Shown: piece after piece, positions 31,001 through 31,940 of the stretch | Numbering within the stretch: position 1 is the stretch's first letter | Layout: every line of letters begins with the position of its first letter | NCBI GenBank assembly: GCA_000092065.1 | Contig: CP000584.1 | Length of the DNA stretch: 64,000 bases | Origin: Ostreococcus lucimarinus | Taxonomy: Eukaryota | Reading direction: 5' to 3' (one strand) | Notes under the pieces: model-generated | Told to the model about the DNA's origin: nothing | Database searches by the model: none | Seen by the model: the letters and a program-made list of their open reading frames with translations, nothing else | Position numbers and translations under genes: made by a program

Positions 31001-31940
31001 CGCGAGCTGCTTCGCCTGCGCCGCCTGCTGCGCCTTGGTGAGCTTTTTACCCTTCGGCGGCGCCTTAGCTCGTCCCTTGGGCGCCGCCGCCGTCGCTGCC
31101 TCAGGCATCATCGAACCCACACCCTGCGTCGGAATCATCGTCCCAGGTGGCACGCCGGCCATCATTTGCGAAGATCCTCCCGCGTATTGCGATCCTTGCG
31201 CCGCCGCCGCGCCGCGCAAAATCGGCGCCCCATTCGGTAACATACCGTTACCCCCCATCATCTGTCCCGCCGCGGGTTGCGCCATATTCCCCCCTAATCC
31301 CCCTGGGAACAACGCTCCCATCTGCTGACGCGAAGCCGCCGCAGCGCTCCCGCCTCCTCTTCCGCCCTGTTGCGCGCCTTGACGAGAAATCATGATGCGC
31401 GCGACGGCTTGAAGTCGCGCCTCCAACGTCGCCTTGTCGCAATACTCATCCTACGATCGCAAAAACACCCCCACAATCCAACCGTCAGTCCTCGAACGTC
31501 ATCACCCGCGCGCGCGCGCGCCTCAACCGCCTCGTTCGTCGCGCGCGCCGATCGAAACCGCGCACCTTGCTCCGCGCTCCGCGATACACCGCCTCCTCCA
31601 ATCGCAGCACAAAGTCCGGTAGCTTGTGTTTCCACTCGTTCGTCAATTCCGGTTTCCTTTGTTTAAACACTCGCAATCTGCGCACCGTTCGCGCGTCCAC
31701 GCCGTCGTCAGTCGTCCCTTCGCCTGAGCGCGCGTTCGCGCGCGTCTTCGCGACCTAAGCCTCGTCCGCGAGATCCGCGTTCGCGCCTCCCCCCCCCGCG
31801 TCGCCTCGCGCGCCGTTCGCCTTCGCGACGCACATGTGTTGAATCAGAATCTTCCTCTGCGGGATGTCGTCGTCCGATTGCCACGTGCGCCACGAGTGCT
31901 TCGCCCCCCCGCCGTCGCTCGCGCCGTTCGCGCCCGGCAT
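28091..31940 (-). CDS. HAC: Histone acetyltransferase of the CBP/p300 (plant HAC) family; 3 exons (31940..31834, 31677..31566, 31450..28091)
   Basis: TAZ1 is RWLLFLRHASKCQ...CPVCGPV and the PHD finger is WVQCDYCEDWYHQLCV...FTCPNC. The KAT11 core reads YLSYLDSVKYFRP...[42 protein letters not shown]. Two ZZ fingers and TAZ2 (LLLHACKCRKERCENSNCPKIKHLLKHALSC) follow. Two 5' mini-exons, found by splice signals, encode a KIX-like domain. Confidence 0.9.
31451..31565 (-). other. Spliceosomal intron (GT-AG, 115 nt, phase 0), HAC intron 2
   Basis: Minus-strand donor ...AGC AAG|GTGCGCGGT (GT at 31565-31564). Branch-like GAGGACTGACGGT. Acceptor TCGTAG| (AG at 31452-31451). The junction joins ...YRGARSK to DEYCDKATLEARLQ. 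Confidence 0.75.
31678..31833 (-). other. Spliceosomal intron (GT-AG, 156 nt, phase 2), HAC intron 1
   Basis: Donor ...CAA CAC AT|GTGCGTCGC (GT at 31833-31832). Branch-like GACGACTGACGAC. Acceptor GTGCGCAG|A (AG at 31679-31678). AT+A makes an Ile codon, giving ...RKILIQH-I-LRVFKQRKPE. Confidence 0.7.

Follow-up and report, generated by a model that had tools for sequence, protein, structure and literature searches.

Activation domains of transcription factors dock onto the KIX domains of CBP/p300 and MED15 (PMC3936767). In plants, KIX domains have been published in the histone acetyltransferases HAC1, HAC5 and HAC12 (PMC5668377); in Arabidopsis, the HAC1 KIX binds the activation regions of DELLA proteins (PMC13505635). 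One layout is shared by the land-plant HACs, Arabidopsis HAC1/HAC5/HAC12 among them: a KIX_2-type domain at the N-terminus, then TAZ1, PHD, HAT_KAT11, ZZ and TAZ2, with no bromodomain. Metazoan CBP/p300 (PDB 1KDX, 1SB0 and 4I9O) differs in that the KIX follows TAZ1 instead of being N-terminal and a bromodomain is present; absence of the bromodomain separates plant HACs from metazoan CBP/p300. The KIX domains of MED15 and Gal11 (9ZJN for Arabidopsis MED15a and 2K0N for yeast Gal11) are a paralogous use of the same docking module, in a Mediator subunit that has no enzymatic domain. The nearest described relative of the gene reported here is the histone acetyltransferase of Ostreococcus tauri (CEF97646.1 / XP_022838808.1, UniProt A0A090M0D8), a protein of 1182 aa whose N-terminus contains ...RWRTWQSDEDIPQRKILIQHILRVFKQRKPELTNEWKHKLPDFVLRLEEAVYRGARSKDEYCDKATLEARLQAVARIM....

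The window analyzed here is a 64,000-nt stretch of the Ostreococcus lucimarinus genome (NCBI GenBank assembly GCA_000092065.1, contig CP000584.1). Translation of positions 28094-31393 on the minus strand gave 1100 aa that were exactly those of ABO95842.1 / XP_001417549.1 / UniProt A4RWA9, a record titled 'predicted protein [Ostreococcus lucimarinus CCE9901]'. The initial annotation of the window, made from its letters, had noted that the large open reading frame starts at a TTG and that its first ATG, at 31393, would lie inside a conserved helix, and had proposed two upstream mini-exons that would supply a KIX-like N-terminus. The ORF list reproduced the first point, with a large minus-strand ORF at 28091..31426 starting at TTG and a first ATG at 31393-31391. 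It also contained the two unrelated-looking ORFs, 31755..32120 and 31485..31700, in which the mini-exons had been said to be hidden. Joining exon 1, exon 2 and exon 3 on the minus strand through two GT-AG introns produced a single frame of 1192 aa in which the only stop was at the very end, and the exon borders proposed in the initial annotation were exact to the base.

Coding exon 1 (31834..31940, 107 nt) begins with the ATG at 31940-31938 and encodes residues 1-35, contributes two bases to codon 36 and includes the start of the KIX with the conserved W-R-T-W...R-K-I-L-I-Q-H; its 3' border reads ...ATT CAA CAC AT/GTGCGT. Intron 1 (31678..31833, 156 nt, phase 2, GTGCGT...CAG) has a branch-point-like CTGAC motif at 31711-31707, 34 nt from its 3' end, and contains an in-frame stop that would limit the unspliced product to 61 aa. 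Coding exon 2 (31566..31677, 112 nt) encodes residues 36-73, ILRVFKQRKPELTNEWKHKLPDFVLRLEEAVYRGARSK, which span the end of KIX helix 1, the loop and helix 2, and ends with ...AGC AAG/GTGCGC. Intron 2 (31451..31565, 115 nt, phase 0, GTGCGC...TAG) has a CTGAC motif at 31488-31484, 38 nt from its 3' end. Coding exon 3 (28091..31450, 3360 nt including the stop) encodes residues 74-1192, comprising KIX helix 3, a Q/G/M-rich linker, TAZ1, the RING/PHD region, HAT_KAT11, ZZ and TAZ2. All of these features lie on the minus strand. The joined N-terminus reads MPGANGASDGGGAKHSWRTWQSDDDIPQRKILIQH-I-LRVFKQ...GARSK-DEYCDKATLEARLQAVARIM, letter for letter the peptide written out beforehand. The KIX-like domain, at residues about 17-97, occupies 31379..31892 (minus strand) and is divided among all three exons, and the start codon used in XP_001417549.1 (31391..31393, minus strand) is Met93, within the predicted KIX helix 3.

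Transcript-derived sequences confirmed this structure. An exact-sequence look-up showed that the 1192-aa spliced product is already in a public protein collection (P0149), where it is carried by two short contigs from different runs, L004 (3957 nt, SRR28369050) and L005 (3919 nt, SRR28369223). BLASTN of both contigs against the window gave three collinear blocks, 32177-31834, 31677-31565 and 31452-27991, with 99.1-100% identity; overlaps of 1-3 nt between the blocks represent the usual splice-site ambiguity. Both contigs join 31834 to 31677 and 31566 to 31450, the two junctions that had been put forward for checking, and both are without intron 1 and intron 2. Agreement of this kind goes well past anything expected by chance. 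Their borders, the branch-point-like motif and their absence from L004/L005 establish both introns as spliceosomal introns of the GT-AG type. The 5' end of L004 is TGGTATCAACGCAGAGTACGGGG, a tag resembling a template-switch oligo and placed directly ahead of the sequence from 32177, which we take to be the 3' part of a SMART-type template-switch oligo; its 3' end, after 27991, is A20. L004 is a full-length cDNA because it carries the template-switch tag at the 5' end and A20 at the 3' end; these two features, together with the lack of introns, point to an RNA origin of L004 and L005. The possibility that they were genomic contigs of an intron-less strain was rejected, given the cDNA-synthesis tag and poly(A) of L004 and the 99-100% identity to the window.

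The ends of the mRNA were defined by the same contigs. Their alignments begin at 32177, giving a 5' UTR of 237 nt (31941..32177, minus strand), and stop at 27991, followed by A20 in L004, giving a 3' UTR of 100 nt (27991..28090, minus strand); transcription of the HAC mRNA thus starts at ~32177 and the poly(A) site is at ~27991. No minus-strand ATG was found anywhere in 32300..31941, and 31940 is therefore the first AUG of the HAC mRNA. A scan of 31900-32300 for bacterial-type promoters and terminators, a type of scan not relevant to a eukaryote, returned nothing.

The encoded enzyme was identified by its domains and homologues. HAT_KAT11 (PF08214) matched residues 623-832 with an E value of 4.5e-33 (115 bits), and zf-TAZ was matched in two stretches (6.6e-27), PHD with 5.5e-7 and ZZ with 4.9e-7; PHD_P300 and RING_CBP-p300 gave weak matches in the 1192-aa product. 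The bromodomain (PF00439) gave no match in this product at E values up to 10. It was also missing from the plant and green-algal homologues and was carried by more distant homologues, e.g. the diatom protein P0143. The named homologues of the product were plant HAC1/HAC12. The gene is a single HAC with the plant-type architecture of a CBP/p300 histone acetyltransferase.

For the N-terminus, the KIX-like reading of the initial annotation was borne out by profile comparisons. KIX_2 (PF16987) matched residues 19-81 of the 124-aa N-terminus, a match spanning all three exons, with E 5.1e-5 and 23.5 bits against a gathering score of 25.6 bits; with the 90-aa segment the values were E 2.2e-5 and 24.7 bits against the same gathering score. 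Both matches are thus significant as E values but fall slightly short of the curated cut-off. An alignable N-terminal segment was present in about 80 of the long HAC homologues, and a diverse alignment of 28 HAC N-termini, named A1, was built from these proteins' family. KIX_2 was matched by 28/28 sequences of A1 (best E value 4.2e-10), seven of which also matched Med15_N (PF09606) and four the classic KIX (PF02172). When the A1 profile was compared with all PDB sequences, the eight top matches were all KIX-domain chains, from MED15a, CBP, MED15 and p300: the KIX of Arabidopsis MED15a (9zjn) came first at 1.8e-4, followed by CBP KIX chains 6dmx, 1sb0, 1kdx and 4i9o at 1-2e-3 and by human MED15 (4d7x), a CBP KIX-ferritin fusion (7tb3) and p300 (9jej) at 0.02-0.04. 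The yeast Gal11 KIX came next in this list, right after one unrelated chain. A search of PDB sequences with the N-terminal peptide as a single sequence gave a marginal match to MED15a only (E 0.086), and it took the family profile to reveal the relationship.

The profile alignments include the conserved Trp, the helix-1 Arg and the helix-2 pattern E-x-x-x-Y-x-x-A-x-S-x-x-E-Y. The window protein has W20, R29, Y66 and S72-K-D-E-Y76 at the conserved KIX positions, with R29 and Y76 invariant across the 28 sequences of A1. The HMMER alignment placed the profile R, the Y of E-x-x-L-Y and S-K-E-E-Y opposite dlR, gdmY and SrdEY of CBP; the core Arg of helix 1 and Tyr of helix 2 are R600 and Y640 in mouse CBP. 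Matches of the profile to solved KIX domains end at about profile position 66, ahead of helix 3. Helix 3 of metazoan CBP/p300, which holds the pKID/c-Myb contact residues, is not alignable to the algal sequence, and the ligand-binding face is therefore not comparable with that of metazoan CBP. An AlphaFold2 model generated from A1 (mean pLDDT 79.9; model residue 1 is protein residue 13) has long helices at 23-43, 49-69 and 79-97 and a short turn at 73-76, so that the three-helix bundle of about 80-90 residues expected of KIX is seen in the predicted model. Met93 falls inside the predicted helix 79-97, as had been anticipated for the ATG at 31393. In a Foldseek comparison with the PDB, CBP KIX was the top-ranked structure, but its E value exceeded 1 and its TM score was about 0.5, and the result was not counted as significant. 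Judged by this evidence, of which the sequence profiles are decisive and the predicted fold supporting, the first ~100 residues are homologous to KIX.

Comparison with related loci showed the same arrangement upstream of the large exon. The O. tauri protein is a direct orthologue in an 84%-identity cluster with the same downstream TAZ/PHD/HAT/ZZ/TAZ layout, and its 90-aa KIX segment is 93% identical to that of the spliced product of the window; the difference is that the public O. tauri record already has the KIX-coding exons, whereas XP_001417549.1 of O. lucimarinus is without them. Land-plant HACs have 45-48% identity over about 67% of the query and N-termini that align throughout with the KIX of the window, but they are longer (about 1600-1850 aa), with a longer KIX-TAZ1 linker, and their angiosperm members have degraded versions of the W-x-x-W and K-L-P-D-F motifs. 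Overall, the N-terminal peptide is conserved in picoalgae, green algae, land plants and a diatom.

The mini-exons were found at equivalent positions in four related picoalgal lineages, with changes mostly at third codon positions. The loci compared included L003, from the same species; L008, from another Ostreococcus-like lineage; L006/L007, which are Micromonas-like; and L001, a genomic contig of a lower-GC relative. All three coding pieces were located by tblastn at equivalent positions in L003, L008 and L006/L007, where the amino-acid identity of exon 2 was 81-100%, and exon 1 was present in these loci and in L001. At the site of intron 1, an intron is also found in L001, L003, L006/L007 and L008 and none in L002; in L001 it is a phase-2 intron of ~270 nt (L001 3200-3600) at the same site after ...CAACACAT. 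Intron 2 is present in L002, L003, L006/L007 and L008 and absent from the genomic L001, in which exons 2 and 3 are contiguous (...AGA ACG AAG GAG GAA TAT TGC...). In L002, a contig of 963 nt, exons 1 and 2 are contiguous at 300-570 (...CAA CAC ATA TTG AAA...) and intron 2 is kept; this contig could instead be partly spliced RNA. A fully joined orthologue from the lower-GC relative is available as P0034 (1253 aa, on a 4230-nt contig). Differences from the window were counted by codon position over the 79 best-conserved codons and amounted, at positions 1/2/3, to 17/5/44 in L006, 14/7/42 in L008, 17/3/42 in L001 and 12/4/34 in L002, third positions being close to saturation and second positions nearly unchanged at all four loci. 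Since third-position changes dominate and second positions barely differ, this pattern shows purifying selection on a protein encoded in the predicted frame.

Further observations were made at individual loci. In L003, a metagenome contig encoding protein P0005, the exon sequences are identical to those of the window, and positions 6001-6231, compared with window 31940-31700, show a read-through frame that differs after ~15 codons of intron 1. A small indel is the likely cause of this difference, and the pattern fits an unconstrained intron between constrained exons. In L006 and L007, the KIX-coding pieces lie at 2159-2218, 2396-2506 and 2944-3015, just upstream of the gene call beginning at 3001, with introns at the same two sites as in the window; the Micromonas-like ORF calls P0039 and P0165 start with 'MVARP...', the Met homologous to window Met93. 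That these proteins genuinely have no KIX was considered and rejected, as tblastn places the three KIX pieces upstream in both L006 and L007. The same truncation thus arises in every case in which the long ORF is equated with the gene.

Taken together, we consider it very probable that this is a HAC gene with three coding exons and a spliced product of 1192 aa, the N-terminal KIX of which likely docks activators by analogy with its relatives, and that the public model is mis-annotated. The opposite reading, a single exon from the ATG at 31393 as annotated in XP_001417549.1 / A4RWA9, would require the upstream peptides to be chance ORF fragments, and GC-rich DNA does give many spurious ORFs on both strands. 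It is refuted by the two cDNA contigs, in which both mini-exons are present, spliced in frame ahead of position 31393, and by the codon-position bias of the mini-exons, which shows coding constraint, and we give it practically no credence; conservation of the peptide from picoalgae to land plants also counts against it, as does the fact that Met93 would cut into a predicted helix belonging to a conserved domain. XP_001417549.1 is N-terminally short by 92 residues, and its KIX was lost through mis-annotation.

Two other readings accept the exons. Transcripts of both kinds might be made, with a regulated KIX-less isoform starting at Met93, produced from an internal promoter or by retention of an intron. 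In an unspliced mRNA, whose frame ends after 61 aa, ribosomes might conceivably reinitiate at an AUG further downstream, and L002, with intron 2 and without intron 1, could be a partly spliced RNA; however, among the contigs found none supports a transcript start inside the gene, the two cDNAs recovered are full length with both introns removed, and the ORF starts at Met93, Met117 and Met129 stem from prokaryote-style gene calling on genomic contigs, which leaves this isoform improbable. Marginally less credible still is that the N-terminus is a generic three-helix bundle, KIX-like by convergence and serving another role, e.g. dimerisation or nuclear targeting. The sub-threshold Pfam score of the window peptide taken alone and the Foldseek E values above 1 would be compatible with such a bundle, but every one of the 28 family members matches KIX_2, some of them Med15_N and the classic KIX as well, the eight top PDB matches of the profile are KIX chains from four different proteins, and the alignment takes in the conserved W, the helix-1 R and the helix-2 pattern. 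The domain is also N-terminal in a CBP/p300-type enzyme, as in plant HAC1, where the KIX has been tested (PMC13505635).

The surroundings of the gene are conserved as well. A CTP_transf_1 gene lies divergently upstream of HAC in L001, L003, L006/L007 and L008; on the downstream side, L001, L003 and L008 have a TPR gene. In the window, the syntenic counterpart of the CTP_transf_1 genes is a divergent 481-aa ORF at 32234-33679 on the plus strand, and the 5' end of the HAC mRNA (~32177, minus strand) is only ~57 bp from its ATG at 32234 (window 32177-32234). Because the head-to-head HAC/CTP_transf_1 pairing is kept in L001, L003, L006/L007 and L008, a very compact bidirectional promoter shared by the two genes is suggested. 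An ATG-initiated ORF of 451 aa (31708-33063, minus strand) runs antisense through the 481-aa ORF into the HAC 5' region; rather than a gene, it most likely represents a shadow ORF thrown up by GC-rich coding sequence. The HAC 5' UTR itself (window about 32005-32150) is GC-rich, with repeated CGCGCGATCGCGAC... and GGGACGCGCGACGACG units, and has blastn matches of 75-89% at 50440-50566, 58931-59051, 58773-58851, 52554-52656 and 34584-34689 of the same window; these repeats could be low-complexity intergenic/UTR sequence or a shared promoter/UTR motif.

On the three-exon structure, the gene is transcribed on the minus strand from ~32177 to ~27991 and translated from the first AUG at 31940, and removal of the two short GT-AG introns joins the mini-exons to the large exon to give the 1192-aa protein. 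Its first ~100 residues are predicted to fold as a KIX-type three-helix bundle, with TAZ1, PHD/RING, HAT, ZZ and TAZ2 after it. Binding of activation domains has been demonstrated experimentally in the relatives CBP, MED15 and Arabidopsis HAC1 (PMC13505635, PMC3936767). Reasoning from CBP/p300 and these relatives, the algal KIX most likely serves as a dock for the activation domains of transcription factors bound to DNA, and such docking would bring the acetyltransferase to target promoters. DELLA proteins are, to our knowledge, specific to land plants, and because of this restriction the partners of the algal KIX must differ from DELLAs.

The clipping of the KIX was shown in the O. lucimarinus reference and likewise in Micromonas-like contigs, where ORF calls begin at the homologous Met. 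A broader proposal, which we regard as a long shot, is that picoalgal catalogues built from the long ORF may lack the HAC KIX, and that the conserved phase-2 intron, which follows ...LIQH-I, would then be old in Mamiellophyceae, with a retention that could gate a KIX-bearing versus a KIX-less enzyme. If this were true, surveys of KIX domains and of coactivator-transcription factor wiring in minimal green genomes would undercount the HAC KIX.

The sole correction to the initial annotation concerns novelty. The biology is already known: KIX domains in plant HACs are published (PMC5668377), the same N-terminus is annotated in O. tauri and the spliced protein is in a public ORF collection, so that nothing is changed in the knowledge of HAC/CBP proteins. 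What the finding provides is a gene-model correction, by which XP_001417549.1 (A4RWA9) gains 92 residues and two exons and the complete KIX domain is restored. It also shows that short 5' exons in compact genomes of this kind are recoverable by sequence reading alone. Left uncorrected, a HAC record lacking KIX in a single Ostreococcus species would pass for a lineage-specific domain loss, and the correction is thus relevant to domain censuses and to comparative studies of chromatin regulators that use the O. lucimarinus CCE9901 genome.
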